This document shows, in pieces, positions 4,365 to 42,960 of a DNA stretch of 64,000 bases. Source of the DNA: Chiloscyllium plagiosum (Eukaryota). The notes below the pieces were generated by a model that was not told the DNA's origin, searched no databases, and saw only the letters and a list, made by a program, of their open reading frames with translations. The stretch is taken from positions 4,414,060-4,478,059 of the forward strand of contig NC_057753.1 of NCBI RefSeq assembly GCF_004010195.1, in the 5' to 3' direction. The first letter of the stretch is position 1, and the number at the start of each line of letters is the position of its first letter. A program made the position numbers and the translations under genes.

Positions 4365-5272
4365 TCATTCAAACAGTTTGGCAATTAAATTGTATGGATA
4401 CATAAATCCATTCCTTAACTCCTTTCTGAATTTACTCTGGGTTCCTGCATAAATAAATGGGTTTATACAGGAACTCAAAAGTTGAAGCATGTATCCAACT
4501 TCCTCCAGACTAAATGTAGCCTCACTAGTATCAGAACCTGTGTAATAAGAAACATTAACAATTCGTACGTAAACTATGGTCATGAAATACAACGAGTACA
4601 ACAGGATGAAACTGCCAGAGATGGCAAAGAGTAATATAATAGATTTTCTCCGCCTCTCCATCTCTGGGTCAGCGAGTTTGCCTCCATTACTTGAAGTCTG
4701 GAGTCTCCTGCGTGCTCTGTTCGCGACAAGAATGTGCCTGATTGTCAGAGCATTGAGCAGCAAAATCAAAATGAATGGAACACAAGGAGTCAAAATTACA
4801 AGAAGCCAGTCATATGTGGCCCATGCAGGTGATGTATAGTATGTTAATTTTATTCTACAGAACCAGGCAACATTTTTAATGATGTACAAAGGCTCAAATA
4901 TAAAATACAAAAATGAATTTCTTATACAGCTTAATGTACAGATTGTTCCTATTACCCATCTTGCTGTTTTCTTTGTACAGTACCGTGATTTCAGCTTTGA
5001 ACAACAGATGGCCACAAATCGATCGAATGTAAAAGCGACCGTTAACCAGGCAGAACTGTCAATAGCTGCATATATTGCAGCAATACGAAGGCTGCATATT
5101 GGTGTGATGTTAAAATGACTCAATGGGAAATAAATTCCAGTGATCCGGTTCAATATTACAGCAGTGACAATGAGCAAGAGGTCTGTGATTGCCATACACA
5201 CCAGGTAATAAATGATACATCTGGACAGACCGCACCTGTTTCGACACAGAATCACAACAACTGCAAAATTCG
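4365..5272 (-). CDS. GPR139/GPR142-like class A GPCR paralog A, coding exon 2 (joined CDS 8824-8755 plus 5272-4365, 325 aa)
   Basis: The 7TM motifs are MAITDLL, TPICS, FTFDRFVAIC, WFC, TPCVPF, CINPFIY and helix 8 KFRKEL. Acceptor ttacag|CG gives phase 1. TGA stop at 4365-4367. Confidence 0.92.
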
Positions 5273-5644
5273 CTGTAAGAAATACAAAGAAAAGAGCCCA
5301 TTAGAAAGTAATGTGCAATATTTGTTTATGAAAGTGCAGAAGCAAATGCAGAAAAAAAACACTGTGTAAGTTCTAACAAAAGAAGATAACCCTTTATAGG
5401 ATTTGATTGAAGTCTTCTCCGAGAGTTTGAAAGATCCACTTTTGCTTTAGACGTTTGTTTCTCTGTTTATAATCACATTGAAATGAATGTATGATACTTC
5501 AATGAAATTAAACCGAACAATAGCCAATGATAATTCTAAACAGCTTGAAATCATTGCTGGAACATCAAATCAATGACGCATCCTATTTGTGGTTGTAATT
5601 TCTTTCAATATCATTCGTTGAGCAGTTTATACAAAAGCTTAAAC

Positions 5645-5870
5645 ATATGTACCAACGCATTCAAGAATCGCTTCCTCCCCTACTGTTATTAGACTTCTGA
5701 ACGGACCACTTAAATTTTAAATGTAATGTTGATTTCCTCATTGTGCACCTTCTCGGCAGTCATAACTTTGCATTCCTCACGCTGTTTTGCTACCTGAATG
5801 CCGTTTGTATAATGAGTTGCCTGCACCATAGGCAAAAAAAAAAATCTTTTCACTGTCTAGGTGGATATAA
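5645..5870 (+). mobile_element. Probable Rex1/Babar-type LINE 3' end
   Basis: ACCAACGCATTCAAGAATCGCTTCCTCCCCTACTGTTATTAGACTTCTGAACGG resembles the RFKNSFFP.AIRLLN C-terminal coding tail of that clade (recognised by eye). Confidence 0.45.
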
Positions 5871-6069
5871 ATCAAAATCTGCGAGAAAATAATGGATCCG
5901 AAAGTGATGACGGAAATTAATGCAAATGAAAAACAATAATACAGTATGTAAGTGAGGAAGCCAACAACTATGGTTAATACTTCGCTGAGGTAAGAACATG
6001 CCCTCATTCTTTAATAATTTGGAACAATTACTACATTTTAGAAAATTATGCAGTCACTTTGCTTTAAAG

Positions 6070-6330
6070 AATTCCTACAATGTGTAAGTAGGCCATTCAA
6101 CCCGTCGAGTCCACACCAACTTTCTGAAGAAGATCACTTTCAGACACACCCCACAATCTTAACGCTTTAACCCATCATTTCACATGACTAATCTACCCAG
6201 CCTGCTATTCCTGGACCGTGGGACTAAACTAGAGTAGCAGAGGAAACCCACACACACACACCGGGAGAATGCGAAAACTCCATACAAACTGTCGCCTGAG
6301 GGTGAAATCGAAGCCTGCCGCCGCTAGGTC
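6070..6330 (-). mobile_element. Degraded HE1-type SINE in the intron of paralog A
   Basis: Contains GAGGAAACCCAC...GGGAGAATGCGAAAACTCCATAC (V-domain, reverse complement). Confidence 0.65.
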
Positions 6331-6489
6331 GCAATGTTTTTGTTCAAAAAATCTCATCTTCGTGGGGAATTGAACAATAGTCTCTCCTAACAGAATGTTT
6401 GATATCACTCTTCTGTTGATCATTTGAATTTTTGTCCTTGCTGTGACTAAATTTAAAAAGAAACGAGGAAACTTGTTCGAAGAAAGGAT

Positions 6490-7505
6490 CCCATGGAAAG
6501 TGAAAACCTCACAAGGATTGGTTCTGTGTCCACTGTTTTCCGTCATTTACATAAATGGTTTAGATGTGAATATAGAAGGCACGATTAGTCTGTTTTCAGA
6601 TGGCACCAATATAGGTAGTGCAGTGGACAGTGAAAAAGGTTATCTCAGAGTACAATGACACCTTTATCTGATGACCAATGTGCCGAGGAGTGGCAAGTGG
6701 AGATACGTTTAGATAAATGTCAGATGTTGCGTTTAGGTAAGGCAAAGCAGGGAAGGACTTTCAGAGTTAATTATAGATTCTCAGGGACAGTTGCAGAACA
6801 AAGGGTCCAGGAGGTTAATATACATAGCTCGTTGAAAGTGGAGTCACAAGTAGACAGGTTGGTGAAGAATTTATGTCGCACACTTTCCTTCATTGGTGAG
6901 AATATTGAGTAGAGGAACTGAGACGTCATTTTGCAGTTGAACAGGGCAATGTTGAGGCCATTTTAAAAAGACTGTACAATTCTGGTCAGCTCTCTATAGT
7001 AATGATGCTGTTAAAATTGAGAGGGGTGCAGAAAAGTTTTAAAAGTTGTTATTCTAGTGGGAAGATATGATTTATACGCAGGACCTGAGCAGGATGAACT
7101 TTTTCCCCTGGAGAGTCGGAGGTTCTGAGGTGACTTTACAGATTTTATATAATATCGGGAGGGGCATGGAAAAGGTGAAGTGCCAGTCTCCTATAGTGGT
7201 CCACTCTAGTCCAAAACAAGTGTGCATAGGTTTACGCTCAATGGGAAAGGGTTTTTTAAAAAGGACCTGAGTAGTTACTTTTTCATATTCAGTGTGGTCC
7301 GTGTATCGAGCGAGCTGCCAGAAGAAGTGCTGAAGGCAAGGAAATTACAACATTTAAAAGGCATCTGGAAGGGCATATGAGATAGAAAGGTTCAGAGAGA
7401 TATGACCAAACGTTAGCAAATAGTTTGAAGTCAGGATGGGATAACTGTTGGTGCGGACGTGTTAGTCCAAAATGTCTGTTTGAATGCTTTATGCCTCTAT
7501 GACTC
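6490..7505 (+). mobile_element. Degraded CR1 3' fragment in the intron of paralog A
   Basis: Remnants QGLVLCPLFSVIYIN, LFSDGT and SLKVESQVDR, followed by a CR1-type 3' UTR. Confidence 0.85.
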
Positions 7506-8754
7506 CTCATTATTGCTCAGAACTGTGACCAGTGACAATGAACCTCGACAAACACTAGAGGCTTACTCAAGAACTTTTGACTCAGATGCCACATTGAACA
7601 AAAAATATGCAGGACCGGTACAATGTCGAGAAACTAACACTGGACAAAAAGGAATTAAATGCAAAATATCTGACAACAGAAATCTCTGTGGAATAGTCAA
7701 CGGCAACTCATCGGAGGGCAAGTATTCTGTGAATTGGACAATGACACATACATGATCACAGCATAGTCAGAAAAGTTAGTATTAGGGAAATGCGTAACGA
7801 GAAGTTAAAATTGTAGATGTATGGGTGTAAGGGAGAGAGAGTGGAAGTGGAAAGGAAAATTCATGGTTGGCTCCCAGCAGGGGTATCCTTTATAAATAAT
7901 CTTTGTGAGTATCAGAACGTTGAGCTTCCATCTTGCATTAAAAATTCATGCTTCCACTAAAAATTTCCTTCTCTGTTCATAACGATCTATCAGTTAGAAG
8001 TAAGGTTCAGCAACGTAATGAGACCCAACAATGATCATTAACACATTGTAAGTAGTTCAGAATCAACATTGGCTTGGGAGCATCAGGAACTGAGAGCAGA
8101 AATTCTGCAACGTGTAATTCTACAGGCAATGGAGTTCACTTCTAAAATTGTCATGAGAAATGGTTTTCAATCGAACACTCAACGTTAAAGAGTATCCATT
8201 AGATATATTAGTTCAGTGGTTCATTTCAGAAATTAGCCAGTCTTTCATATTGCTAGATCAATCAATTGTTTGTGAAAATTAATTTCATCACGAAAGTCAA
8301 TCACACAGTAGCATCATTGTGATTACAATGAGAAAGTTCCAAATAGTAATTGCCAATAGTTATTTGGAACAATATTTACATTGCATCTATAGTTCAAATT
8401 CATTCGCAGAAACATCATTTATAAAAACTAACTAACACTTGGCTTTCAATGTTGAAATTCATCAAACGTGACGACGGTAATGACATTTCACTTACCTTTT
8501 TACAACATCCTACAATGTCACCGTAGAACCCCAGTACAGGTATCGCAATAAAACAGCAATTCCGATCTGATTATATCATTTTCAGAGACCCACACTTTTA
8601 TTAAGAACAAGAATTACAATTGGATTGAAATCGAGCACCCGTGGAAAATTTGCTGTTAAATGATAGCTGTCGTTCAGATAAGGAGACCATGCAGGTAATT
8701 TGAAACGTTCGTTCAGTTCATCATGATTGCCTTCAAACTAACTGAATACATTAC

Positions 8755-8824
8755 CTAGAACTCCGATAGCAGCAATAGTGGGATAGTAAATGGCAAACAC
8801 CAGACCTTTTGGTATTCCATGCAT
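8755..8824 (-). CDS. GPCR paralog A coding exon 1 (MHGIPKGLVFAIYYPTIAAIGVL)
   Basis: 70 nt from ATG to donor G|GTAAT. It is homologous to the other two first exons and its phase matches exon 2. Confidence 0.88.
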
Positions 8825-8876
8825 ATCTATCAGCAGATCTGAGTAGGTGCTGTAATGCATAGAAGGAAAGTCACAC

Positions 8877-8980
8877 TTATACATGATTCAAGGCTCTAGA
8901 GGCACAATTAACCTGTTTGATTTTGTTTAAAAAAAAACGATATACACTAATCGAAACAGAAGGTACCGCCACCCCTGGGG
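8877..8980 (-). promoter_or_regulatory. Paralog A proximal promoter: TATA-like box, O/E(EBF)-like sites and homeodomain site
   Basis: TATAA (minus strand, 8877-8881), CTCTAGAG (8894-8901), CAATTA (8905-8910), and a second site CCCCTGGGG (8972-8980). The first three are positionally conserved in all three paralogs. Confidence 0.6.
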
Positions 8981-9639
8981 TCATGTTTATACTTTGATGG
9001 AGCAGCAAGCTCTTTGAAATATGTGGAACCAAAATGAAATCCAACAGACTGCACTAAGGTTTAAGTTACATTTTCTCCCTAGAGCAGCACTGGAGCAGAA
9101 GCAGGCCATTCAGCCCCACGATCACGTTCCGCCATTCAATGCAATCATCATTGATTGTTGACCTAACTCCATATACCTGTCTTTGGGCCACATCCTTTAC
9201 TACATTTGCTTAACAAAATAAAGCTATTAGTCCAGTGATTTCAGTTCTTCACACAATTATGCACGCAGTGTAACGAAGAAGAAGTATACCAATGATTGTT
9301 ATTTAAACAAAATTAATTTAGAAGCATAACTATCCATCAATCTGTAACAATGAAGAAGATAATTTAGGATATGCCCTCTTGCATGATTTAATTTAGTTAA
9401 TTTCCTCTTAGATGATAATATACAAGAGCAGCAATCGGTTCTTCAACCCATGGAGTCTGCTGTCCATCTTTCAACATGGTTATAGCTGATCTGATAATTT
9501 CTAACTGAACTTTCAAGCATTCTCAATATAACCATTGATTTTTTTTGCATGACTAAAACTCTATTTCCGCATGGAATATTCTCATTGATCCAACATTGAC
9601 AGCCCTGTTCACGCAATAATTTCTCCAGTCCATTATGCC

Positions 9640-10745
9640 CTGGGATTGATGGGTCATTGACAGCACTGATTAGAAATTGACTAAAAATATAGCAAGCAGA
9701 AGGTTTAAGGAGATGGAAAGTTTTCAGAGATAAGCTGCAAGTGGTATTCCTCGGGATCGGTTTTGGGTCCTTGTTTTTCTTTATTTTCAGATCATTATAA
9801 ATGTGTTGGAGATGGGTCCTTGTTTTTCTTTATTTTCAGATCATTATAAATGTGTTGGAGATGGGTGTTGAGGGTAAATGTTCCAGCTTTTACAGATTAT
9901 ACTAAAGTAGGGAGAAGAACTAATTATGAGGATGACGCTCAGCAACCTCAGAGGGACATTCACAAGTTCGTCAAGTGGGAAGATACCTAGCAGATGAACT
10001 TCAACACGAAGAAATGCATTTTTGTAGAAAAACAGCCACGAACAGACAGTACGGGCTCAATGATGCATAAGAAACTCGAAGTTCAAGTGCATAATGGTTT
10101 GAAGGGAGTTTGGATAGATGCAACCGCTGTTAAGGAGGCTTGAAATGACTCCTGGGTTTCTAAATAGAGGCAAAGAGCATAAACGTCATGCTACAAGTTT
10201 ACAAATTATTGGTCAGACCGCATTTGGTTGCAGTATTGATGCCTTACTTAAGGACCTTCAATCGCTGGAGACAGTGCAAAGGAGACTTACTGGAATGACG
10301 TCAGGCATGAGGTAATTTAGATGCAATGGAAGAGATATTGGAGTCATTTTCCTTGCAGTACGAGAAGATTAAGAGGTGGCCTCATTGAGGTGCTCAAAAT
10401 TATGAACGAGTTTTGACTGTGGATTTTCTATTTCTGCTAGTTACTACCTCAGTAATTGGGGTGACAAAATCATGGCAGTCAGCAAGAGAGCTAGGAGTGA
10501 AATGAAGAGAAATGTTTTACTCACAGATTTGCTCACAGTTGGAATTCACTACCTGACAAGTTGTTGAGGTGGATTCTGTATGAGATTTTAAAAGGGAACT
10601 GGACATATATCGCAAAATAATGAATTTAGGTATCGACTGAGGCAGGGATGGAGAATGGAATAAGATGTGTAGATCTTTCTGAAAGCAGTACATACATGAT
10701 GTTTCGAATGGCCTCATTGTGTATTGTAATATTCTGTATTCTAAC
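9640..10745 (+). mobile_element. Old degraded CR1 fragment
   Basis: Contains AGTGGTATTCCTCGGGATCGGTTTTGGGTCC ([12 protein letters not shown]), an LETVQRRLT remnant and a CR1-type 3' end. Confidence 0.7.
9764..9866. repeat. Perfect 49-bp tandem duplication
   Basis: TGGGTCCTTGTTTTTCTTTATTTTCAGATCATTATAAATGTGTTGGAGA occurs at 9764 and again at 9813. Confidence 0.95.
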
Positions 10746-10960
10746 AATTCCTCATCTGCTATGTCTTAAATCGGTGAATAGCAGTTTCTACCACGTGAAG
10801 CTGGAATATGAGAAGTTTTGAAATCTGAAAAGCAGATGGAATCTCCATTGACGAGAGTGCACCTCTCTCCCAAGGAAGTGAGTGACAACGTGCTAATTCG
10901 ACCAAGGAGACTGTTAGAGTAAGCGTGCCAGAAATAGTGTTCCACGTTACCCAAAAAATA

Positions 10961-11178
10961 GATTAGATTAGATTACAGTGTGGAAACAGGCCCTTCGGTC
11001 CAACAAGTCCACACCGACCCGCCGAAACGAAACCCACCCATACATTTACCCCTTACCTAACACTACGGGCAATTTAGTATGGCCACTTCACCTGACCCTG
11101 CACATCTTTGGACTGTGGGAGGAAACCCACGCAGACACGGGGAGAACGTGCAAACTCTACACAGTCAGTCGCCTGAGG
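10961..11178 (-). mobile_element. HE1-type SINE (5'-truncated)
   Basis: (GATTA)n tail, GGAAACAGGCCCTTCGG and the V-domain in reverse complement. Confidence 0.9.
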
Positions 11179-11451
11179 GCAGCACTGTGGCACAGTGGTT
11201 AGCACTGCTGCCTCACAGCACCAGAGACCCGGGTTCAATTCCCACCTCAGGCAAGTGACTGTGTGAAGTTTGCGCATTCTCCCCGTGTCTGTTTGGGTTT
11301 CCTCCCACAGTCCAAAAAATGCGCAGGTTAGGTGAATTAGCCATGGTAAATTGCCCATAGTATCAGGTGTAGGGAAATGGGTCTGGGCGGGTTGAGGGTC
11401 GATGTGGACTTGTTGGGCCGAAGGGCCTGTTTCCACACTGTAAGTAATCTA
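11178..11451 (+). mobile_element. HE1-type SINE
   Basis: A-box TGGCACAGTGG, B-box GGTTCAATTCC, V-domain, and tail GGGCCGAAGGGCCTGTTTCC. Confidence 0.92.
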
Positions 11452-11499
11452 AAAAGAAAATGCATTGCTTCTGTTGGCATAACCCAGCACTAACACTCC

Positions 11500-13005
11500 G
11501 TATCGCTTACAGTTTATTTAGGCTATTGGGAGTTGTTGGAATCAAAGGCAGCGAGTGGTAGGTGTTAGTTTCTTTTGTTCCAGGTGTGGAATTTGTTTGG
11601 TTTAAATAATGTTTTATGTAGTAATGGCTCTTTCAGTCACCAAGAGTTTTCTTTGGGTAGAAGAAGTGATTCTGGGGGTTTTACAAATTGTGAGTAAGTC
11701 AAACCTGTCGGGGTTGCCTGACATTTGGGGTTGGGGTTGCCTTCATCTGTGCAAAAGGAGATGTAATCGCTTCAATAGCACAACATTCAAATTTGTTGGG
11801 AACAACTACGGAATCTTTGGAAATGGCTAGAATTCAGTTGCAGATGAACAGCTTGAACATGAAAGTGAACTGAAACAGTTTGAATTACGGTTGAAAGCAG
11901 TCATAAATAGGAAAGGAAAGGAAAGGTAGGCCCGACTGGAACACAGAGAAAAGGACAGAGGGAAAGAGGATATGAGTGAGAGGGGAAAGGGATAATAGAG
12001 AGAGTTTGAACATCAGAGGTTGGCAATTAGACTGGGAAGTCGATGGAAAATAATGATGTTTAAGGTAGAAGGTAGGCTTAGAAACTGGCTTTTCCTGTTT
12101 TCCGACATCTGTCTTCCCAGTGTGTTTCTAAACCACCGTCAAGCTTGTTTGCAGTGTAAATACCTGGTGGGGCCTGATAATGATCTGTTTAAATATACCC
12201 AAGCATTGCCTAAATTTGATTAGAACAATATAAAAGGCTTTTGCGTCTCACTTCAGGAGTGGCTAACCAAATGGAGTGGCCATGATCGTTTTGGTTTTGT
12301 TGATCTTGTATGTTTGGTAAGGAGAGCTAGTGAAGTATTTGCAACACTGCCAGAGGAGATATCAAAGCAGTATGAGGAGATGACGAAAGCCATCTGCAGT
12401 GCATATGGGCTTGTGCCAGAACCTTAAAGACAACATTGCAGGGATCTGAGGAGGGATCCTGGTCAAACATACTTGGAATTTGAAAGGATAAAACAAAGTA
12501 ATTTTGACAGGTGGATGAGGGCATTCAAAATTGATCAAACATATGACGCACTTGGAGAGACGATCGTTGTGGAGGAGTTCAAGAATTCACGTCCTGAAGT
12601 ATTGAGAACTGACTTGGAAGAACAGAGAGTTAAAATAGCAAGATTAGCAGCTGAAATGGCTGGTTATCATGATTTGCTTCATAAATCAAAGTTTGGTTTC
12701 CAACATCAATTTCAATCAGTGAGGGATTGAAACTGGGGAGAAGAGAAATTCTCAGACCGTAAGTAAAAAATGGATCTAATTGAAGATAAAAAAGATAGCG
12801 TACCACAGGATGAAAAAAAGAACCACGAAGGGGAAAAAAAAGTTAAAAAGGCGTCGGTGATTTCATTTTACTAAAGTAGATTGCATGAAGTCACAGTGTT
12901 AGTCGTTTTGAAAATACACTCAGTACATGGATGTAGGAAAACAGGGTAAACCAGTGAATTTTGTTAAAGTGGTAAAGGAAACTACAATGAAGGATAAAAA
13001 GCTTT
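11500..13005 (+). mobile_element. Degraded gag (SCAN-like region) of a Gmr1-like Gypsy LTR retrotransposon
   Basis: Remnants ALPKFD and LEFERIKQSNFDRWMRA...EEFKNS...EEQRVK.ARLAAEMA plus a decayed Zn-knuckle. The start ATGGCTCTT (11624) is paralleled at 59464. Confidence 0.7.
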
Positions 13006-13544
13006 AATGCACGGTGTCACCAGAAATGCAGTGTAAGTCAATGATGTGTGAAGTCCCATTCTGATATTTCCTTCTCAAGATCAGGCCAGTGTCCTGTCCC
13101 TTTCTGTTAGCTGGTTTGGTCTTTGGCATCACCTTCAGGATGGTTGCCTTTCCTTACGTTCTTGCACCATTTTTTTTTTCAGTACAATTAAATTCTCTGA
13201 CTAACATGGTTATTTGACGGGCTAGCAGTTTTTATTACTTTTAGCTTGGAAGTAGCATCATACTGAATTAGTTTTGCTGGAAGACCCATTTCGGTACTTC
13301 AATTGCCATCTGTGTGGGTGTGATTCATTTACAAACTAACTCAGAGTTGACGCACTAACTGGTTGACACCCTTTTCCCCATATTGTAAATTGCTGTCATC
13401 ATTTGAAATTTGGCAGCTTTGCATTTGCACGAGTGAGTGAAAAAGGAAATATTTGACAGCATGCCTCCCTTTCCTAACAATATTTGAGAATTTTATTATA
13501 CTTGCCAAGGTCTTTAGAACTCTCTCAGCTATGATGCATTTTAC

Positions 13545-13955
13545 ATCTGAGAGAGGCTGAAAAGGATACAGCAGTTTTCTCTGGAGCACCGGAGGCTGCG
13601 GGCTGACCTTGTGGAGGTTCATAAAATCATGATGGTCATGCGTAGGGTGAGTAGGCTGTGTCTTTTCACTGGGATGGGAGGAGTCCAGAACTAGAGGGAA
13701 TATGTTCAGGGTGAGAGTGGAAATATTGGAAAGAGACCTAAGGGTAACCTTTTCACGCAGACGATGGTGCGTGTATGGAATGACTTGGCGGAGGAAATGG
13801 TGGAGGCTGTTACAATTACAACATCTGGATGGGTATATGAATATAGGGATAAAGGGCCGGGTGCTGGCAAGTGGGATTAGATTATGTTGGGGTATCTAGT
13901 CTGCATGGACAAGTTGAACCAAATGGTCTGTTTCTGCGCTGTTCATCTTTATGAG
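13545..13955 (+). mobile_element. CR1 3' end
   Basis: Sequence resembling RRLR.DL.EV.KIM and FFTQRVV, followed by a CR1 3' UTR. Confidence 0.8.
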
Positions 13956-20432: not shown

Positions 20433-21349
20433 TTATCTTGAGAATTGATGTAATTTCGCAATTAGACAGAATAGATACTTCACCCCATTCATTAATTCTG
20501 CTCTGAACTTTCGTTGGGTACCACCATAAATAAATGGGTTGATGCAGGAACTGAAAAACTGAAGCATATAGCCAGTTTCCTCTAGTATAAATTTTGATTC
20601 TGTGAAGTCAGAACCTGAGGAATATGCGACATTCGAAATTCGGACATAGAGAACTGTGACAAAAAATACAGAATACAAGAGAATAAAACTTCCTGAGACA
20701 GCAAAGAGTAAAATCATGGACTTTCTTCGTTTCTCCATTTCTGTGTCACTTTGATGTTCTCTGTTGCTCTGAGTCCAAAGTCTCTCCCTGGCTTTATTCG
20801 CAGTTAGAATGTGTCTGACGGTGAGAGCATTGAGCAGTAAAATCAGAATGAATGGGAGACAAGGTGTTAAGATGGTACGAATCAAATCATACGCAGCCCA
20901 TGCAAGTGAAGTATAAAATTCAAATTTAATGCTGCAATACCAGGGAACATTGTTAACTATGTATGTAGGTTCATAAATAAAATACATAAATATATTCTTT
21001 ATACAGCTTAAAATGGAAACAGTAGCTAAAACTAGAGCTGCTGTATTCTGGGTACAATATTTGATTTTAAGCTTCTGACAACAAATGGCAACAAGTCGGT
21101 CGAAGGTAAAAGCAACAGTTAACCAGGCAGAACTATCAATGGCTGCATATATTAAGGAAGAACGAAGACTGCACAGTGGTGTGATGGAAAGGAAACTGGA
21201 TGGGAAGTAAATCCCAGCGATCCGACTCAGTATTACAGCAGTGATCATTACCAGGAGGTCTGTCACCGCCATGGACACCAGGTAATAGGTAATACATCCT
21301 GAGAGGCCGCATCGTCTTCGAGATAGGATGATAATCACTGCTACGTTAG
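20433..21349 (-). CDS. GPR139/GPR142-like GPCR paralog B, coding exon 2 (joined CDS 25480-25411 plus 21349-20433, 328 aa)
   Basis: Motifs MAVTDLL, TPLCS, FTFDRLVAIC, PWYC, TPCLPF, CINPFIY and KFRAEL. Acceptor tttcag|CT gives phase 1. Confidence 0.92.
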
Positions 21350-21381
21350 CTGAAATTGATGAAAATATACAAAAAGAGCAA

Positions 21382-25410: not shown

Positions 25411-25480
25411 CTGGGACACCAATAGCTGCTAAGATAGGATAGTAAATAACAAACACGAGGCCTGTTGGTGTTACATGCAT
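25411..25480 (-). CDS. GPCR paralog B coding exon 1 (MHVTPTGLVFVIYYPILAAIGVP)
   Basis: 70 nt from ATG to donor CAG|GTAAG, phase 1. Confidence 0.9.
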
Positions 25481-25531: not shown

Positions 25532-25566
25532 TTTATGCCCAATGTCAGTCTCTCGGGGGCTAATCA
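25532..25566 (-). promoter_or_regulatory. Paralog B proximal promoter
   Basis: CATAAA (minus strand, 25532-25537), CTCTCGGG (25550-25557) and TAATCA (25561-25566). The two motif offsets from the ATG (70 and 81) are the same as in paralog A. Confidence 0.6.
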
Positions 25567-28509: not shown

Positions 28510-28925
28510 ACTAAAAGCATTGAACAGTACAACACAAGAATAGGCCCCTCAGCCAACCAAAACGCCGTTGACACTTGACACCTATATTTATTCACGTAGA
28601 ACAGAGAACATTGAACATTAGAGCGTAGTATTGGCACTTCAGCTCTCGATGCTGTTCCGACCTGTGAAACCAACCCAAACTACAGTATTCTAATATCATC
28701 CATATGTTTATCTAATGATCATTAAGACGCTTTTAATGTTGCCAAGTCCACTACTGTTGTCGACAAGGCATTTCACGCCCTTATTACTGACTGAGTAAGG
28801 AAACTACTTCTGACATCTGTCTTATATCTATCACTGCTCAGTTTAAAGCTATATTTCCCCATGCTAGCCATCACCATCTGAGGGAAAAGGCTTTCAATGT
28901 TCACCATATCTAATCCTCTGATCAC
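28510..28925 (-). mobile_element. CR1 3' end fragments
   Basis: GAACATTGAACATTA tail and ACTGAGTAAGGAAACTAC (reverse of SFLTQ). Confidence 0.7.
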
Positions 28926-28934
28926 CTTTGGTGT

Positions 28935-29557
28935 GTGTTGATAGAGGTGGAGATAACTGCCATACTACTCAGACCCCGTCGTATCATGGTAGCCCACAAA
29001 TCCACCAACACACTAAAACAGCAACTAATGAACTTGACAGACCCGATACAGACAGCAAGCAAAACTAATGTAAGTTATAAAATGCCGAGCAAGAACTGTA
29101 AAAAACACTACATTGGACAAACAGGCAGAAAATTAGCCATTGGGATGCATGAACATCAACGAGCCATAAAACAACATGACCCTCTCTCACTAGTATCCTT
29201 ACATACAGATGAGGAAGGACACCATTTCAACTGGTACAACACATCCATCCTAGGACAAGCCAAACAGAGACATGCACGAGAATTCCTAGAAGCATGGCAT
29301 TCCAACCGGAACTCTATCAACAAACACATTGATTTGGATCCCATCTACTACCCCCTGAAAAAAGAACAGGAAATGAAATCAGCATAAGTAACGACGCCAC
29401 CACAGGAAATCACCAATTCAAGGAAACGCAAACATGTAAATAGAAAGCCGGAAACAACAGCAGTGCTCTGTTCAGAGGCTCACTGACGATGTTACCTAGC
29501 ACGGTGATGAAACGGCTGAAAATGGACCTTTCAGTTCAGCGAGCAATCCTACATCAA
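28935..29557 (+). mobile_element. Penelope-like element 3' part (GIY-YIG domain plus 3' end with hammerhead-like motif)
   Basis: ORF contains NVSYKMPSKNCKKHYIGQTGRKL...HEHQ...REFLEAWHS. Motif CTGACGA-TGTTACC-tagcac-GGTGAT-GAAAC at 29483-29513. Confidence 0.85.
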
Positions 29558-31910: not shown

Positions 31911-34900
31911 GTAGACTAAAATGTTCGAACTTATGCCTTGCTGCGTTATTTGTACCTTATCCTATGAAGCCTATTGATGTTAATTGACATGTTCCGTATT
32001 GCTGCAAAATTTGCGTGTTTTCTTCCTCCACAAGTGCGATCACAGAACAGGTAGTCCTTTGTTACTGATAAATATTCACAAACCAATCAGCTACCTGTTG
32101 CTACCCCGGCCCCTAAACGATCCCAACAATTCGATATCAAGCTTTTCAAACCATTAAAAGAATGAGGAACTGTGCACAAAACACTTGCGTTAGTGCAAAG
32201 TAAATTGCTTTATTTGCAGCAATCCTTCATCCATACTTATTTTCTTTTCGAGAATAATTGTTATATTTCCCGTTTCAGTCCGCAACAGCAGGATAACCAC
32301 ACACACATGTGCACAAGAACATGGTCTGTGTAAAATTTCCGAGTTAACTTTCTGACGGAGTCCCGTGCTGTGACAAAGAATCATCAGAATTGGAAAGATT
32401 GAAATTAAATGGGTTTCATTTGGAGATGATAATTTCGGTTATTCAACGACTTTGAGGATGCGACGTCATCTGCAACAGTATTCTTCACCTGATACCTATA
32501 TTGTACACCCAGTTAAGATATTGGACATGAACATTGCACTGTGCAGACATTTATTGAAACTAACTAACTATCCAATTGTTTAGACAGTGACACAACTCAG
32601 TTAGCATTAAGTTATCAGGTTGTAACAAAACTATTAACTTCGACTCGAGTGTAATGCGTCAATGGAGTAAAAATGAGAATAAGCAAATCAGATCACAATT
32701 TCAATACACTGAAAAAAATCACCAGTGAAAATATCTGAAAGGTACACTGACATATTTACAGTGTATACAATACATGAAGAGCTAATAAAATTGGGGCCAA
32801 TGGAAATATATTGATTATAAAATATTCATGTATCAAAACAGAGTGGTCGACAATGGCTTGGTAAATGAATATACTACTATAAGGACAATCTAGCCCAGAA
32901 AGATTGCATTTCAGGTATTATGTTGATTTGCAATGTCAATTTGAGGAAGAATCATCTAGACTCGAAACATTAGTTTTGTTTTTACTCCCTAGATGCTGCC
33001 TGACCCACTGTGATCTCCAGCATTGTTTGTCTTCAGTTTCCACTCATATAGCCTCTGACACTAAATGATTGATGAAGATTGGGAATCAGCTCTGCAACTC
33101 ATTCCCTGTTTCCATGTTGGAAATCTACAGTGATATTGGTATCACGAGATTTCAAGTTTGTTCATTTATTTTATTCATTCCTAAAGCGTGTGTGTCCCTG
33201 CCAGGCCTATGTTTGTTCCCCATCCAGAGTGGTCCTCGAGAAGATAGCGTCTACCTGAACCCTTTCTGTCCTTCACATGTGGTTCTGCATGCCGTGCTGT
33301 TTTGAGTAGTTTAAACAAATGGTGGTGGGAATGCAATATTTTTCCAAATCTGCCTGACGTTTAACTTGGTGTGGAGGTTACAGGTGGTAATGTTGTCGTT
33401 CATCTTGTCTTTCTGGGTCGTATGTATCGCAGGATTGGAAGCTGCTCTAGAATAAGCCTTGTTGGGTTAGTGCAGAGTATCTTGGCGATGTCACTGTGCA
33501 TCGATGGCAAAAGGAGTGACTGCCAAATGTATTGAGTGGATGGTAATGACGCAGATGTCTTCGTGCTGAACGATTCCAACATTTTGCTGGCGCTGACCCA
33601 TCTAGCAAATTGCAGAATATGCCATCCTGCTTTGCAGCAGGCATTGGGAAGAGTGGAGATCAACCAATTGGCTAAGAATACCGACTGCTTTTGGCTTCAC
33701 ACGATGCACACAGCTGGGAGGGTTTTTGATACAACTGTAGTGTTGCTATCTCTGAACCAGAAGATCTGTAATTAATACCCATTTGCTCCTGTAAAGCGTA
33801 ATAATGTATCAGAACATGTTCATTAGAAAAGATTTCCATCTGGCTGTTTCACTTAAGTCAATGGTAACTTACAGGATATTGAGAATGGGAGACTCAACGA
33901 TAGAAAACTCCAAATTGTTGAGCAATTTTTTGGTAAATAATGTGAAAGAATCACTTTAGACATCGTTTTTTTTTTGCTGAGCCTAATGTAGAAGGCATGC
34001 ATCAAGGGCACTTCTTCACTTTTGCCGTGATGTATTTTCATCCTGCCAATTTCATGACGATTAAGACAGCGTGAGACTTACCGACAGCTAGAAAGAAGAG
34101 GGATTAATACACCCCTCTCACGAATGTTAGTCTTACACAAAAATTTATAATGACGCGAAACTTGTGAACTGTACCTTGTACTACAGAGATAATCAAAGGA
34201 ATTTTTTATTCTGTTTCTGTCTGTCTTTAGTCTTCCCAAGATAGGCTGAAGTGCCATACTCAGGCTGCACCTCACTGAGTTACGAATTCTCATTTGTTCT
34301 CCATCTAGTATACCGTGATCATTCAAACTAATGCAATCATGACCTCATGCATCTGCTACCTGAACACTGGCGAGGCTGAGCTGAAACAGATTATCCAGCA
34401 CTTCAAAACTATTCATTAACAAAGTTACGTGTTTGTGTTCCAGGATTCGGCCTATTCACTCCAAACAACAAACTAATGTTAAGGTGGCAGCATAACATCC
34501 AAATCATTTGAATGGGGAAAACAGCAAGTATGGAATTCCAAACAGCATTCGTTCCTTCTCAGAAAATTCATACTCCACCTAGAGGTCTTCTGCATGCTAT
34601 TGGCTGCAGTGTTCTCGCAGCTGTAGCTCTTCCACGTCCTACTTTCCAGAATGTTATTCTATTCTCTGCTGACCCATGCCATGTCTAAAGAAATGAATTA
34701 CATCGAATCAGCTTTATTGTCATGTGCATTCGGATGAGTGCAGTGCAAAGTTTGCAATGTTGTCCCTTACAATGCCACCACAGACACAAGATACCTCGGA
34801 ACAGATTCTTAAGAAGTTGGTGTAAAAGAGGAAAAGTAAGTCAATAAAAATTCCACCATCGTCATGAAGAGGATCTTTAAAAGAAGTACTCAACTTACAG

Positions 34901-37900
34901 TCTTTCCACCCAAGTCCGTGCCTACAATTATCCTCCCGACTCCACCGGGTCATGTCTCCAGGCTACCTTACTCCCTATCTACAAAGGATCTCTCCTTCCT
35001 GCTTTGGTCTCCAATTTCGCACTTGCCTCCACATGGCAGCCCTTCAGTCCTGGAGACACCGACCTGTAAATGCCTCCAGTCTGGGGATCGTTTCCCCACT
35101 ACATTCTCATGTTTGAGAATTGCCTCTTCCATTCCCATCCGATTAAGTTCAAAACTTTCTTTTTAAGTTAAAGATTTTTTAAAAAATAAACAAAAGAGGA
35201 AACAAAAATGGAGTGAACGAGCTCTGGCATGGGAGCCGCACTCTGCTGTCATGTTGACAGGAGGCTGGATACTTAAAATGTGGACATACTACATAGAAAG
35301 CATCGCCTTCAGTCGTTGTTACTGTGAGACAAGTGTTTTCTTTTTGGTTAAAGAAGTTACACAGCACAGTTCTACCAAATTCGCGAGGAGATTAGAGCCC
35401 GAATTCAAGGCGTCTGATTTTAACAACTTCACGTGAAGGATTGGATGTAACTAATTCATTTGTCAATGTAGATACGTATGGAGATTTGCAATCCCAATGC
35501 CTCTGGTTCACGGTCTCTCTTCTCTCTCTCTGTGTCATGACGTAGAAAGATGAAGGGTTTAAATCTCAAAACAGATTTTTCAGTCTTGAATGTGGAAGTG
35601 TCCTCTGACAGTATTTTGGGCAGACATAAAATTTTCTTTTCCAAAGGTTGGGGAAACTAGATAAATTAGAAATATGAGTAGATTGTAGTTAGTATCTTGC
35701 CCTGAAGTGCCAAGAACAGAGGCGTTGGTGGAATTAAGATGAACAATGATGATGCTTTAATTGAATTGCCAGTTAATCTAGGTTTTATAAAAGACTTAGA
35801 CTCGTTAGATTTGAGTGACAGCAAGTACATGTTATTTCAATATCTTGTCAGATCCAGGAAGCCTCGTGAATCTCCTTAGGATATACAGTTAATAGACTAA
35901 AATACACAGCATTTCAGTGATCTGCATGCACAGAATGTGAATTAATTCTACTGACCATCGCATTAATCAACAACTATCAAAAGGAAAAATGGAATACGCA
36001 TGTTGTAGCTATCAGGTTTTTAGAAATTCGGTGATTACTAGATCTGACTTTGTGAAAGCAGAAGTTAATTGGTCTGACTGTTATTCTGATAGTTTTCAGT
36101 CTGAAGTCTCAATTTGAATGGTCGTTCACAGCTTTGTTTCAAGAATTCAGCGTGTCACCCAGACCTTAGTTCTTTCAAGAAGTATTAAACGTGGAACCCA
36201 ATTATGTAGTTGGAAGGCAACTTAATCACTGTGCTGATAGTAGGCCATTTGGCCTCGGATGCTATTCATCTTGACATAAGCAGCGAGTCAAGCAAATTCC
36301 TATGTGATTTATAATTGGATCGGGAAATTGTCAAAGTGGTAGCTGTTTATCCAAAATATATTTTTAAAAATTAGAACAAAGGGACTTACAACACATCTCA
36401 TTCGTCATCTCCCTTTCATTTATGGACCATCCACAGAAAAGTAAATGCATTGTCTCTACAGGCTGAGTATTACCTGACCTTTCATTCCCTTTTGCGAGTC
36501 AATCAATTTTACTGGCGATTGGGATGTTATCCTGTGGAAAGTGTGGGCTGTAGAATCGCGTCACTCAGTGCCTGGTTTTCATTGCAGGGATGTATGACCT
36601 CATCACTATGACTGCCGTGCTCTTGAAGGAGATCCCTGCTGATAATTTTACAAATGGTTTCCTTTTTGATACTCCAAACTGCAGTCTGAACATTACATTG
36701 ACATAGACAGTAAGGGATCTTTAGACTATTTAAAGGTTGCTAAAAAGCTCAAACCAAATCAGAGTAATTAAAGAATCGCTGCATTGCTGATAGGAACAGT
36801 GATTGCACTACGCATGAATTCATGAACGTAATTGACGATATTCCTTGGTATTGCAGATTGAAAGAGATTCGTTTCACTTCGCAATTATGGGCAACGTTCC
36901 AGTCGACTGGAAGAATTCTAACCCGTGACTTCCATTCTTTCTGATACTTTTTTAATGCTCTGACTGCCAGGCACATTCTGGCGGCAAGTTAGACCTGCAG
37001 GAGACTCCACTTGCAGAAAATGGAGAGAATCCGAGTGAGTCCGAGGTGGAGAATAGGAGGAAGTCTATTATTTCACATTCCTCCATTTCGGATAGTTTCA
37101 TTTTGTTGTTGATGACTAACATCATGCATTCCTTTGCAGAATCATTTTTAACCGATTGTAGCATCTACGGGTTCAGTGATTCTTGAATTACTTTGCAAGC
37201 AAGTGCCAATTTGCCTTAGCGATTGAACGGTTTTTGCAATCATTTTTATTTATGCAGTGACACTGAGTAAATTCGGGAACAGAATTAAAATTTGCTGAAA
37301 AATCCATTACCACTGTCAAGTGCATACATATATTAGGAGCTGGTGCATATTGCTCCACTTTGCACTGAATGCGTCCATGATCTGTCATGTAGGTCGAGTT
37401 ACGTTGAGAGTGCAGGGCAATTGGAAAACTTTAATAATGCTCAAGAGCAATGGGAATATGGCGATTTTGGAATTGATATTGGCTTATGAGGGGGACTGGA
37501 GAAGTAGGTTCTCATTTAAATCTATAAAACTTCAATGAGATGAATGGTGGTTTTCAAAATTAATTGTTGGTTGTCATAGGAAAAGCAATCATTCTATTCT
37601 TCTATTTCAAGTTTGGTTCAAAACTGAACAGTGAAGTGGAGTTGTGCTATTAAATTGGGATCAGTACACTTCTGTAGCTAGGAGAGAGAGTATATTCCCT
37701 CTATTGGAGGGTGGACAAACGGAATTGAGGAGGCTTCCAACAAAGACCAGAAACAGTGGGGAATTCCTCACAGGCTTAATGGACAGTGCTCCTCTTATGG
37801 TCTATTTTCATAAGAGAGTTGATGGTTTGTACAGACACAGATGCGCCAGGTTTGTGAGTGTGCACTAGCAATTGTACAGGAACACTACAGCACTCCCCGG

Positions 37901-38119
37901 CTCTTTCCTTAATTGTGAGATTTTTCTTTAATGTGAAACCTTTGCTTCAAATATCTTTACTGATGCAGAATTCAACAAGATATTTTTAAGTTACAATCTG
38001 TCTTTACTTCAGAGGCGACTATTTCTGACAACTCATAGACAAAGTTTTAAAAGTATTATTAATTCTCTGGCTTGTTTACTCTGAGACATTCCAGTTTGCA
38101 TTCGGGGTTAATAGGTAGC

Positions 38120-38420
38120 CCTTATAGCGTCAGGGACCTGGGTGCGATTCCACCCTCGGGAGACTGTCTGTGTGGAGTTTACACATTTTCCCCGGTGTGG
38201 GTTTATTCTGGATTCTTCTGTTTGCTCCCACAGTCCAAAGTTCTTCAGGTTAGTTGGGCTGGCCATGTTAAATTGTCCGTGCTATGCAGGCCAGGTGAAT
38301 TAGTCATGGGATAGCAAGATTATAGGAATGAGAGAAGGGGTTGGTGCGACTGGGATGCACTTCAAATTGTCGGTGTGGGCTCGATAGGCTAAATTGTCTG
38401 CTGTAGGGATTCTATTGTTC
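38120..38420 (+). mobile_element. Degraded HE1-type SINE
   Basis: GACTGTCTGTGTGGAGTTTACACATTTTCCCCG...CTCCCACAGTCCAAAG (V-domain). Confidence 0.75.
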
Positions 38421-38719
38421 CATGACTTAGTAGTGGTATGATGTTGTTCTATGCCCATCTGTTACTCTGCTTTATCTCATTGATCACCTCTCTATCACAG
38501 TTACCCCCTCTGTTTCTACAAATGAACACATTTTAATCATGTTTATATTTTTATTGTTACATCCGCTGGCCTTCTCTCGATATGATTTTGGCTGATGTCC
38601 ATGTTTTGCTGGTTTATCAGTTTTATCCTCCCATAGTTTTTTTTGTAGGGAAGGACGGTATTTCATGCGTTTTTGAGAGTACGTTGACCATGAATGTTTG
38701 TGTCATTTCTACTAACTCA

Positions 38720-39205
38720 TTTAAAATCAGGAGGGACGTATATATGGTAAATTGACAAGATCTTTTCGCTGGGATGGGGGAGTCCAGAGCGAGAGGACAA
38801 AGGTTTAGAGTGAGAGGGGAAAGACATAACAAGGACCTCAGGGACAACATTTTCACATAGACTCGGCGCAACATCGAGGGCCGAAGGGCCTGTACTGCGC
38901 TGTATTCTTCTATGTTCTATGTTCTATGTTTAGAGTGAGAGGGGAAAGACATAACAAGGACCTCAGGGACAACATTTTCACATAGACAGTGGTGCATGTA
39001 TGAAATGTGCTACAAGAGGAAGTGGTAGAGGGTGGTACAATTACAGCATTTAAAAGGCATCTGGATGTGTATATGAATAGGAAGGGTTTAGAGGGATATC
39101 GGCCAAGTGATGGCACATGGGACTGGATTACGTTAGGATATCTGGTCGGCTTGGACGAATTGGACAAAAGGGGCTATTTCCATGTTGGACGTCTCTGTGA
39201 CTCTG
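38720..39205 (+). mobile_element. CR1 3' end interrupted by a 65-nt CR1 tail flanked by 60-bp direct repeats
   Basis: Identical 60-mers at 38803-38862 and 38928-38987. The insert at 38863-38927 ends in TTCTATG repeats. Confidence 0.85.
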
Positions 39206-40163
39206 TGTAATGTTTGTAAGCTGCACTTCGCAAACTATCATGCCCATCACATAAATACAGTTAGTATTCAGAAACGTGACAACATTTCAAATATCAGACC
39301 CTAAATACTTGCTCAGCTGAATCTGGAATGCTGTCTGAAAACATTCAACTGTTCGCCAAATATATGCAAAAAGGTGTCATCAACAGGAATTCAAAAGAGA
39401 ATTAGGAAGCCAAAACATTTTTGTCCTCTGAATTTCCAACGTAATCTCCAGAAATGATGTTTTAGGAACCCTTCTTATTCATTGTTTTCTTATCTTTAAT
39501 ATCACAGCAGGTTTGCTTTGTCCTGGCTGCGTGCCAATGTGAGTACACGTGTGGGCTTAAGAATCATACAGATTAACTCATCCATAATTAACAATACACC
39601 ATGATTCTGTAGCATAGTTGAGACTCAATGGCATATGACAAGGACACACTAGACATCTGAGAGAGACTGTGATAGCGCAATCATTAATCATGTTCTATGG
39701 ACAGACAGGCGAAACCTAGCATCAGGCTGAAAAGAACAATATCATTCAAGCAAAATACATTGATACAGATTTTACAGAAACCCTGGTCTGAACGTCGGGC
39801 ACAAATTCCTCCACAATGTGTGCACACATTTGGAGAAAGGAGAAGCTAATTCAGGATACCGCAATATCCAGTTTTCAGGCCTAAGAAACATAATTAGAGT
39901 TGGCAAAAGTTCATATCTAGTGAAATAGTTCACAGAAGGGCCTTGGTCAGATGATGAATCAAATTCTATGTTGGCTTTCAGCACAGAGGATGACATGTCG
40001 AGCTTATATCAATCCAGGCAAGTGACCTACCTACCTGCTTAGAGTTTCAGACTGAGTAAGGATTTTAAGATGTTCAAAATGTTAGCAGTAGGATTGTGAG
40101 CTACATGAACGAAAATAAAAAGTGTTGTAGTGGACGCTTAGGTTGCAATAGCTTTTTCATACT

Positions 40164-41074
40164 TCACAGTTTAAATACATTAACTAATGGACTCAGCAGA
40201 TATTTTAATGCTTTTTGTAACTCGTACCTAAACAAACTCTGTGTCCCTGCATAAATGAATGGGTTGATGCAGGAACACAAAACCTGAAGCATGTATCCGC
40301 TTTGTTGTAGAGCAAATGATGAATTAGTGAAATTGTAACTTGAGGAATAAGTAACATTTCCAATTCGAATATAGAAACTCATTACAAAAAGCAGCAAATA
40401 TGATAGGATGAAACCACCGGAGATGGAAAAGAGTAAAACAATTGACTTTCTCCGCTTCTCCATCTCAATGTCACTGTGATTCTCTCCACTACTCTGGGTC
40501 TGGAATCTCTTCCGGGCTTTATTTGCTGCTAGAATGCTCCTGACTGTCAGAACATTAAGTAGCAAAATCAGAACGAATGGAAGCCATGGAGTAAAAATGA
40601 TCCAAATCCAGTCATAAGCTGCCCATGCAGGTGATGCATAATAAGTTGCCTTTATGCTACAGAACCATGGTATATTGTTAATTATGTAGATAGGTTCATA
40701 TATAAAATATATAAAAACATTTTTTACGCAACTCAGTACAGACACAATTCCTATAATCACCCCAGCCATCCTCTTGTTGCAATATTTGTTTTTCAGGTTA
40801 TGGCTGGAAATCGCCACAAATCGATCAAAGGTGAAAGCAACCGTTAACCAGACCGAACTGGATATCGCTGCAAAATATAAAGCGGAACGAAAACTGCAAA
40901 CTGGTGTGATAGACAGGAAACTAGAAGTGAAATATGTCCCAGCAATCCGATTTAATATGACGACCGTGATTATAACTAGGAGATCTGTCACCGCCATTGA
41001 CACCAGGTAGTAAATTACGCATGCAGAAAGACCACACCTTCTTCGAGACAGAACGACAATCACTGCCAAGTTAG
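40164..41074 (-). CDS. GPR139/GPR142-like GPCR paralog C, coding exon 2 (joined CDS 42841-42772 plus 41074-40164, 326 aa)
   Basis: Motifs MAVTDLL, TPVCS, FTFDRFVAIS, PWFC, TPWLPF, CINPFIY and LFRYEL. Pyrimidine-rich acceptor atatag|CT gives phase 1. Confidence 0.92.
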
Positions 41075-42771
41075 CTATATAAAAGAAAATATGAAAGAAA
41101 TGGGAAAATTGAAACTTTCCTCGATTGGCTGCGATCAATGTCAATGTTTCACCAGAATCTGAGTGAAGCACATCACGTTAAGATGATTCTTGAATTTAGA
41201 AGTTATCCCTGAGAGAATTATTGACTGTGTTTGCAGTCATCATCATCCGGATCCGCAAAATAAGACAAGTTCTTTGGAGAATTAATTCAAACAGCCTAAA
41301 CCAATATAGCAAATCAAGGCGAGTAGGAAAGCATCAAAGGCAGAAAGAAACAACATTAGTATCAACAAAAAAATACTGAATCCATTGAGGAGGGTATATC
41401 CAAGTCAAGAGTAATGGAAATAACTTTGTGTAACTGACACAATATTTAGCACCTCACTGAGTACCTAAAGTGGATCGTTTCAATCAATTTATGTCAGCTA
41501 GTATTAGAGAACTCCAATTCTCTTGGTTAAAACAAAAAAAGGACACTCCATCAGAGGGAGTTCATAGAAATTTCAAGTTTCACCAATGCGATGGAAAGGA
41601 TTGTGCAGCGTTTGAATCACAACTTCGAGCTCTTCACATGACAATTCAGTAAATTTTAGGATGTCAAACTGAACTAAGAAAACTCGCAAGTGGCGAGAAC
41701 TCATTTGGAGAAAAATTCCCCGATGTTGCTTTGCACCCTCTGTCGAATCAAAATTATTCCTTGTCGATATTTGAAACGAGAATGCTTCAGCTTAATTGTG
41801 AGGACAGTATTAGTTCTGCTGTATCGCTCAATTTGCAAATAAAATAACGAAGTTTGTAACAATTTGGAAATATTGTTGTGTGGTATTAGGAAAAGGAAAT
41901 TTGGCTTCAATTTATTACTAACAACAGTCAACCATGAAGTCGAGGGAACAGCTAAAACATTGTAAATTAGAGTGAAACACGCCCGTGTTAATGAATACTC
42001 CTTCAATAAATCCATTCATTGAGGTAATTCGGAAAATACTTAATAGTTCAAATTTCTCAATCAGCCGGTGATCTATACTGTTTATGATTTACGCTGTTAC
42101 TATTAAATGCTTAACAAAGTATTCTGCATACGATTATCACAATTTGTCAATATGCCCACTGTAACAGTAGCGATTTAAATGTAAATCCCAATTTCCTTTG
42201 AAATTATGGTCTCACAAATGCAACACAGGCAATTTTAAAGCCACAACATAGCTACGTGTTTGTAATAGTATCATTTTCAATAATACTCTAAAGTTTTATT
42301 TGCGTAGTGATTACAGCAAGAAAATTCATGCACAGTTGCTTTACCAATGATACAACAGAAGTTCATCAACATTGTTTTTGTCAAGCAACTAACCGAGCCC
42401 AGGTACTGTTAACATCTTACAATCAGATGCTATATGTAACAGAAAGTTAGAACTCACCTGAAAATGACATATTATACAGACTAATAGGAAGGAACTTTGC
42501 AATTCCAAGAGGAAAATTACAGTGTTAAATAGATGTAATCACACCGAGTTATCATCGTTAAAAAAAACTCAGAAAATTGAGGGACATCTAATGCTTTGTA
42601 CTGATATTATTGAAGTACATAAGCCACACCGTAAAGTGAGAAATATATATTTTTAAGTCGAACATCCTTCATGGTAATGAGAAAATGTGTAGAAAAGTTT
42701 TTGTTATTTGGGGATAATTGTTGGAACCAAGCTAATATTTCTGCAGCTTTTCAATGACTGCAGTGTCTCAC

Positions 42772-42841
42772 CTGGAATCCCGATCACTGCAACGATGGGA
42801 TAGTAAATTTCAAAGATCAGACCCTGTGATACTGCATGCAT
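42772..42841 (-). CDS. GPCR paralog C coding exon 1 (MHAVSQGLIFEIYYPIVAVIGIP)
   Basis: 70 nt from ATG to donor CAG|GTGAG, phase 1. Confidence 0.9.
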
Positions 42842-42892
42842 CTCCGTCAGAAGTTCTGAATATGCTTGGCATTCTCTGACCACCAATTACTG

Positions 42893-42960
42893 TTATATCT
42901 GAAGTAAGACTCCTGGGAAACAATTAGCTAATTCAAAATTATATATTAATTAATTTAGTC
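42893..42960 (-). promoter_or_regulatory. Paralog C proximal promoter
   Basis: TATAA (minus strand, 42893-42897), CTCCTGGG (42910-42917), CAATTA (42921-42926), and further TAATT motifs to about 42955. Offsets from the ATG are 69 and 80. Confidence 0.6.

Follow-up and report, generated by a model that had tools for sequence, protein, structure and literature searches.

A very large, clustered receptor family distantly related to GPR139 and GPR142 as a candidate olfactory repertoire of cartilaginous fish

A stretch of 64,000 nucleotides from the genome of Chiloscyllium plagiosum (contig NC_057753.1, positions 4,414,060 to 4,478,059; hereafter the window) carries three intact genes, here called gA, gB and gC, that encode class A seven-transmembrane (7TM) receptors. 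They represent only a minor fraction of a very large clustered family that is turning over by birth and death. Judged from its sequence features, foremost a proximal promoter that joins a homeodomain (HD) site to an O/E site, the family likely serves as an overlooked olfactory receptor repertoire of cartilaginous fish. A broader proposal, which we hold more tentatively and at slightly less than even confidence, is that several hundred intact genes make up a fifth family of vertebrate olfactory receptors, the one on which these animals chiefly rely for smell. It would derive from a peptide-receptor lineage that remained at one copy in bony vertebrates, would have been recruited by an Lhx2/Ebf composite in the promoter of each gene, and would overturn the view that 10–50 olfactory receptors suffice for sharks.

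Sharks have large olfactory organs and only about 10–50 known olfactory receptors (PMC10116579), and their small repertoire has so far been explained as sensitivity gained at the cost of discrimination (PMC10116579). If the proposed role is correct, a family more than 10 times larger than the known shark repertoire, hidden under the name "probable GPR139", would remove this olfactory paradox and give vertebrate olfaction a further class of receptors. It would also imply that a new receptor lineage can be recruited by building the Lhx2/Ebf composite into promoters. Even if the tissue should not be the nose, the family appears to be one of the largest vertebrate GPCR (G protein-coupled receptor) expansions.

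Genes in the window and size of the family

A six-frame scan of the window found three long 7TM frames on the minus strand, and a coding exon 1 of 70 nt was located upstream of each. In gA, exon 1 (42772..42841) runs from the ATG to a phase-1 donor and encodes a short N-terminus and the first half of transmembrane helix 1 (TM1), while exon 2 (40164..41074) continues from TM1 to the stop codon, giving a protein of 326 aa across an intron of 1,697 nt. The corresponding exons of gB lie at 25411..25480 and 20433..21349 (intron 4,061 nt, protein 328 aa), and those of gC at 8755..8824 and 4365..5272 (intron 3,482 nt, protein 325 aa), all on the minus strand. Each joined model has a GT..AG phase-1 intron and zero internal stops, in agreement with the first-pass annotation, which had described three co-oriented, intact two-exon 7TM genes with an equal exon 1 length and the same intron phase. 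The start codons are spaced by 16.7 and 17.4 kb, the proteins are 58.8–67.7% identical to one another, and 7tm_1 (PF00001) is the sole Pfam match of each (E 2e-22 to 2e-24). Their closest listed relatives are whale-shark proteins, namely P0113 for gA (89%), P0001 for gB (86–88%) and P0087 for gC (83%). Further family copies lie within 20 kb of the window on either side. A decayed fourth copy, a pseudogene remnant that had been missed before, sits between gA and gB in the opposite orientation (about 36518–37109, plus strand); it consists of exon-2 fragments, recognised by tblastn pieces at 31–41% and by blastn at 71–76% over about 180 nt.

Two degenerate TM3 patterns gave 1,235 and 1,390 exact matches across the genome, and their reversed controls gave 0. 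The family thus counts more than 1,200 copies, far more than had been guessed from the window, and the low copy number that would have spoken against a repertoire was not observed. Among the 1,390 matches, 1,119 are of a Trp-Phe variant, and genes of this kind, which form subfamily B, make up most copies; subtraction leaves 271 of the Trp-Leu type found in the window genes, which belong to subfamily A. A protein search of the same genome scored 129 of 8,259 candidates, and these best matches are biased towards intact genes: all except gB itself were 62–73% identical to gB, about 79 lay on the window's 15-Mb contig (counted by hand), 12 on small unplaced contigs, and 114 were without a listed stop.

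In 60 loci sampled from the pattern lists on contigs C8, C7 and C4 only, nearly all of the Trp-Phe variant, exon 2 was intact in 19, broken in 32 and interrupted by assembly gaps in 9. The excess of broken over intact copies bears out the birth-and-death turnover that had been suggested from the window. By scaling, roughly 240 plus 420 (270–580) copies would be intact, that is about 500–830 in all, a rough figure that would be raised by variants outside the TM3 patterns and lowered by duplicate haplotypes. The depth over exon 2 (summed contig depth in three DNA runs) was far above that of the flanks and is not usable as a copy number. The sequencing runs X1–X3 behave as genomic DNA, with introns and repeats covered and no splice joint shown.

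For comparison, the odorant receptor (OR) profile PF13853 gave 3 strong matches among 18, in line with the expectation that sharks have few ORs. With PF01094, some 40 long matches were counted by hand on a single contig, which we take to be V2R-type genes from their clustering and a motif. The new family resembles the OR, TAAR, V1R/ORA and V2R/OlfC families in forming a large clustered repertoire of compact genes with pseudogenes and with a promoter of HD, O/E and TATA-like elements. It differs from them in having two coding exons and in not being a member of any of them by sequence: PF00001 was the only Pfam assignment, and ORs fell far from the family in the trees described below.

Relationship to GPR139 and GPR142

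The first-pass annotation had read the window as a tandem expansion of a receptor like the amino acid sensors GPR139 and GPR142, two orphan class A receptors that are activated by L-Trp and L-Phe. Several features connect the family with this pair, which shares its wider clade, its phase-1 intron and similar TM1, TM3 and TM7 signatures. GPR139 is the best Protein Data Bank (PDB) match of the family profile, narrowly (56 bits versus 51.8 for TRHR), and the top Foldseek match by a thin margin; the underlying AlphaFold model is modest (pLDDT 66), and neither it nor the Foldseek result was used for claims on the binding pocket. When a single sequence was searched against the PDB, GPR139 ranked low (E 0.0016), outside the 12 matches at E ≤ 0.001. 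The intron had been ascribed to GPR139 in the first-pass annotation, and this proved right: gA, gB and gC, the GPR139 gene of this genome and its GPR142-like gene all have a phase-1 intron just before the TM1 Asn with the same AG|xNAAY acceptor. Together with the automatic database name "probable GPR139", these points would suit duplicated Trp/Phe sensors of the GPR139/GPR142 type acting in brain or gut, an explanation that we consider highly improbable in view of the evidence that follows.

The true GPR139 of this genome is a single locus on another contig (529 bits against the PDB chain), and so is the GPR142-like gene (315 bits), one copy each as against the more than 1,200 of the family. 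The window proteins are only 25–28% identical to GPR139 and GPR142, and 29–35% identical to two groups of relatives represented by P0217 and P0220. Trees of 75 rows, 39 rows (under a mixture model) and 24 rows (a quick LG+G4 run) agreed in topology. The family was joined by the P0217 group at 100/99, this clade by the P0220 group at 88/81, and then by anchovy and caecilian genes (99/97) and by amphioxus genes (93/90), with GPR139 and GPR142 outside. The superclade that includes GPR139 and GPR142 was separated from other class A receptors at 96/93 in the 39-row tree, 98 in the 75-row tree and 92 in the 24-row tree, against outgroups limited to 8–11 shark receptors that we take to be of the TRH, neurotensin, amine, melanocortin, cannabinoid and OR types; some of these rows were partial exons (TRH and neurotensin types), and none was a TAAR. 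An approximately unbiased (AU) test on 24 rows rejected a forced clade of the family with GPR139/142 (log-likelihood 55 lower, p-AU 1.65e-5). The phylogenetic part of the earlier claim was not supported: the family falls outside the GPR139/142 clade and groups with other, unnamed vertebrate genes that are single-copy. Expansion of GPR139 or GPR142 itself is contradicted by the AU test, the separate single loci and the low identity.

The Trp/Phe site of GPR139 points the same way. F3x33, H5x43, W6x48 and N7x38 are needed for activation of GPR139 (PMC5430874). By alignment, gA, gB and gC have F, Y and Y at 3x33, W, R and L at 5x43, and Tyr at both 6x48 and 7x38, so that aromatic residues are kept at 3x33 and 6x48 while H5x43 and N7x38 are replaced. 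The family further has a Cys in TM3 and one in extracellular loop 2 (ECL2), which GPR139 and GPR142 lack, and it lacks the TM6 Pro. The rejection by the AU test, the two lost site residues and the extra cysteines together place the family as a distant sister lineage of GPR139 and GPR142, with a common intron, and make it unlikely that the ligand is the same as that of GPR139.

A database search returned 1,685 proteins; among the 120 listed, 119 were named shark proteins, mostly labelled automatically as "probable GPR139". A profile search of representatives at 50% identity gave 131 matches at E 1e-30 or better, and among the 30 of 150 listed representatives that were named, the family includes members from stingray, skates, electric ray and chimaera. 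This range across sharks, rays and chimaera upholds the earlier suggestion of a cartilaginous-fish family. Subfamilies A and B both hold shark and ray members, which argues that the repertoire has been kept since before the shark–ray split. Close relatives in bony vertebrates are few, and the nearest look single-copy. The P0217 group (P0217 and P0413–P0432; 25 matches) comprises amphibians and sturgeon, and the P0220 group (120 of 145 listed) comprises sharks, bony fish, amphibians and reptiles, with no mammal or bird among its named rows; both have about one entry per species, unlike the family to which they are nearest, and they too bear the name "probable GPR139". The Xenopus gene of the P0217 group offers a tractable gene for ancestral expression. 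In this genome, the P0220-type gene lies on contig C26 at about 36.599–36.602 Mb (L225, L247) and has the same exon-1/exon-2 split. Two P0220-group entries are named as TMEM183A isoforms, suggesting that the gene adjoins TMEM183A.

Outside chordates, the nearest Atlas clusters carry PF10324 (Srw). Srw-type receptors have expanded as chemoreceptors in nematodes and molluscs. Receptors of the Srw/MIP type are distant from the family (in the tree, only the unnamed proteins P0267 and P0269 stood in for them), and an independent co-option is inferred. Invertebrate MIP/sex-peptide and FMRFamide receptors have been reported as relatives of GPR139 (PMC12208981).

The family is present in databases under automatic names and apparently undescribed. 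No description of it was found in the literature searched, with most subscription journals outside that search, and a prior report is possible; in the same literature, no functional description of the P0217 and P0220 paralogues was found. GPR139 and GPR142 are unmentioned in the main text of PMC11979771, whose supplement may bear on expression; the word "shark" is absent from PMC12208981, and "GPR" is absent from the main texts of PMC10620051, PMC7677710 and PMC11406177.

Proximal promoter and expected site of expression

Alignment of 30 loci taken from an exon-1 pattern (160 matches) revealed a fixed element, TAATTR-NN-TCCC-N-GGAG, that combines an HD site with an O/E site. It lies about 156 nt before the donor and 86 nt upstream of the ATG, and a TATA-like box follows 29 nt after its start. 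In the window, the element occurs on the minus strand at 42910..42926 in gA (a perfect match to the family consensus; TATA-like box near 42897–42892), and with 3 mismatches each at the family offset at 25550..25566 in gB (box at about 25537–25532) and 8894..8910 in gC (box at about 8881–8876). Upstream of gC, a second, near-perfect palindromic O/E-like site is present at about 8972–8980 (minus strand), some 70 nt beyond the degenerate composite.

In the first set, the composite was found with at most 2 mismatches in 17 of 23 short-exon-1 promoters (a set that includes the window's three) versus 1 of 875 control windows. Genome-wide, the strict pattern gave 85 matches versus 36 in the control; 52 of the 85 had a family exon 1 immediately downstream in the same orientation, while the remaining 33 are about the control level. 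Among the 52, 12 lay at the longer distance typical of genes with a long N-terminus. A held-out set of 40 further loci was taken at steps along the exon-1 list with the motif disregarded: at most 2 mismatches were found in 23 of 39 short-exon loci and at most 3 in 31 of 39, versus 0 and 2 of 117 control windows, respectively. The olfactory-type promoter claimed in the first-pass annotation has thus passed a held-out test. Column identity was 0.72 over the HD site, 0.70 over each of the O/E halves and 0.64 over the TATA-like box, compared with 0.25 in the spacer and 0.33–0.37 in the flanks, values that are somewhat inflated by anchoring on the best match.

Two mouse probes offer a comparison (PMC5608512, supplement 7): the sequence of the Sfaktiria composite probe is TAATTGATCTCCAAGGAA, and TCCCTGGGGA forms part of the OMP Ebf probe. 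The spacing of the family composite equals that of the Sfaktiria probe, and its O/E half is 1–2 nt from the OMP Ebf probe. Two added bases in the composite impair binding (PMC5608512), and odorant-receptor promoters depend on their HD and O/E sites (PMC12547500). Most sampled genes of the window's subfamily have this olfactory-type HD plus O/E proximal promoter, which differs from the Lhx2/Ebf composite of the mouse Greek Islands in that it stands in each gene's promoter and not in enhancers, at the same spacing.

If the family is an olfactory repertoire, Lhx2/Emx2-type and Ebf factors would bind the promoter composite, so that scattered olfactory sensory neurons would each express a single member of the family. 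The extracellular loops of each receptor would serve to detect peptides or amino-acid derivatives in the water, ligands that are suggested by those known for the clade (PMC12208981). The receptors may signal through a Go/TRPC2 cascade, which is characteristic of almost all olfactory neurons of the catshark (PMC10116579). Within such a repertoire, subfamily A could form an old and stable set, and subfamily B could track fast-changing ligands.

A number of observations weigh against a role in the nose. The upstream regions of V2R-type, OR, GPR139/142 and P0220-type genes had been intended as positive controls, and all were negative. With at most 2 mismatches, the composite was absent from the 6 kb upstream of all 20 V2R-type genes examined (exon 1 was located for 17 of them), and it was absent upstream of the 3 ORs; it therefore does not mark olfactory receptor genes of sharks in general. 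It was not found upstream of GPR139 or the GPR142-like gene (exon 1 was located only for the latter), nor in the 400 nt upstream of the P0220-type gene, where the best match had 5 mismatches. Most sampled subfamily-B promoters have a degenerate composite (at most 2 mismatches in 1 of 9). Other neurons and B cells likewise employ Ebf and homeodomain factors. In the window's subfamily, positive selection is absent (omega, the ratio dN/dS, is 0.24, and model M8 gave no improvement over M8a). In the mouse, the composite is a feature of enhancers and not of promoters (PMC12547500), and the ORs that it serves are those of ciliated neurons, a cell type apparently missing in catsharks (PMC10116579). 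In a catshark brain and olfactory library, the 50 most abundant specific genes include no GPCR (PMC11979771); single receptors would be rare transcripts, which tempers this negative. A single-cell RNA run of unknown tissue, of which about 2% was read, gave no gB exon reads and matches to repeats only, and is evidence neither way.

An alternative is a chemosensory repertoire outside the nose, in trigeminal, dorsal-root or lateral-line neurons, solitary chemosensory cells of skin or gill, taste buds or gut, comparable with the MRGPR expansion of rodents. Copy number, clustering, pseudogenes and selection on loops fit any sensory repertoire, control by Ebf and homeodomain factors is also used in other sensory neurons, and the composite is missing from V2R-type promoters. 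However, the exact HD-to-O/E spacing is that of the element described for olfactory enhancers, and positive evidence for any other tissue was not found; we regard a site outside the nose as rather unlikely, yet as the alternative to be taken most seriously.

A TATA-like box about 45–65 nt ahead of the ATG is common to the V2R-type promoters (L227–L245, contig C13). Several of them also have, 30–90 nt further up, a pyrimidine-run/GGGA element that may be a different Ebf-like site.

Selection and turnover in the two subfamilies

Selection was analysed with our own codon-model code on fixed trees, for 32 genes and 292 codons in subfamily A and for 17 intact genes and 288 codons in subfamily B, from which 2 genes of another subfamily were excluded. 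Subfamily A, that of the window, has a short N-terminus and near one-to-one whale-shark relatives at 83–89%. Its loops evolve at an omega of about 0.3, and the TM6–ECL3 region at 0.26. The divergence of loops noted in the first-pass annotation is thus real, but the special diversification of the pocket that it had read from them does not hold for the window genes, whose loops are under purifying selection.

Such diversification was found in subfamily B, which is younger than the window's subfamily and about a third of whose copies are intact. M8 was preferred over M8a by 2dL 252, and the 15 sites with a posterior above 0.95 all lie in the extracellular half of the receptor (15 of 122 codons versus 0 of 166), in ECL1, ECL2, the tops of TM5 and TM6, and ECL3. 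Synonymous rates are 1.5–2 times higher in the loops of this subfamily, and the M8 omega of 7.5, being inflated by them, was set aside in favour of region fits. With the synonymous rate freed, ECL2 has an omega of 1.85 (2dL 9.9), and ECL1 and TM6–ECL3 are near 1. The scaffold of subfamily B is at 0.37. Positive selection therefore holds for ECL2 of this subfamily, with gene conversion as a possible contributor to the signal.

These features of an arms race (a derived promoter, fast turnover, ECL2 under positive selection, and elevated synonymous rates in the loops that may stem from gene conversion) could also be read as those of an immune surveillance repertoire that binds pathogen-derived peptides on leukocytes or barrier epithelia in the manner of formyl-peptide receptors, and Ebf1 is a B-cell factor. 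This is improbable in our assessment: the window's subfamily is conserved, with its low omega and its near one-to-one relatives in the whale shark, and bears the full olfactory-type composite, and subfamily B retains a recognisable, partly decayed copy, and 12 long-N-terminus genes have the composite intact.

A further possibility is that an ordinary GPCR was multiplied largely neutrally by segmental duplication on repeat-rich chromosomes and that the promoter motif reflects shared ancestry. In its favour, 32 of the 51 Trp-Phe-variant copies that could be judged are broken, and the 12 of 129 top matches on small unplaced contigs may be duplicate haplotypes. Purifying selection over the 32 genes of subfamily A and in the scaffold of subfamily B, a composite that has kept its sequence between randomised flanks and around a randomised spacer, and the retention of both subfamilies in sharks and rays since before their split make such an origin very unlikely.

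The family exceeds the two clades analysed. Exon 1 of subfamily B (L036, L044 and L110; contigs C8 and C7) encodes a long N-terminus of roughly 14-residue repeats in variable number, some with N-glycosylation sequons, unlike the very short N-terminus of the window genes. Loci L206 and L207 (C8, about 18.8 Mb) and L263–L268 (C30 and C37) represent additional subfamilies, which stand apart in their exon-1 or exon-2 sequence and have weaker or different promoter elements.

Elsewhere in the window, positions 45000–56900 hold reverse-transcriptase and endonuclease fragments of the LINE (long interspersed nuclear element) type on both strands, presumably CR1-like; this region is interrupted near 46190–46920 by an assembly gap (about 730 N). 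Fragments at 2–460 (minus strand) and 28914–29384 (plus strand) resemble the GIY-YIG endonuclease end of what we take to be Penelope-like elements.

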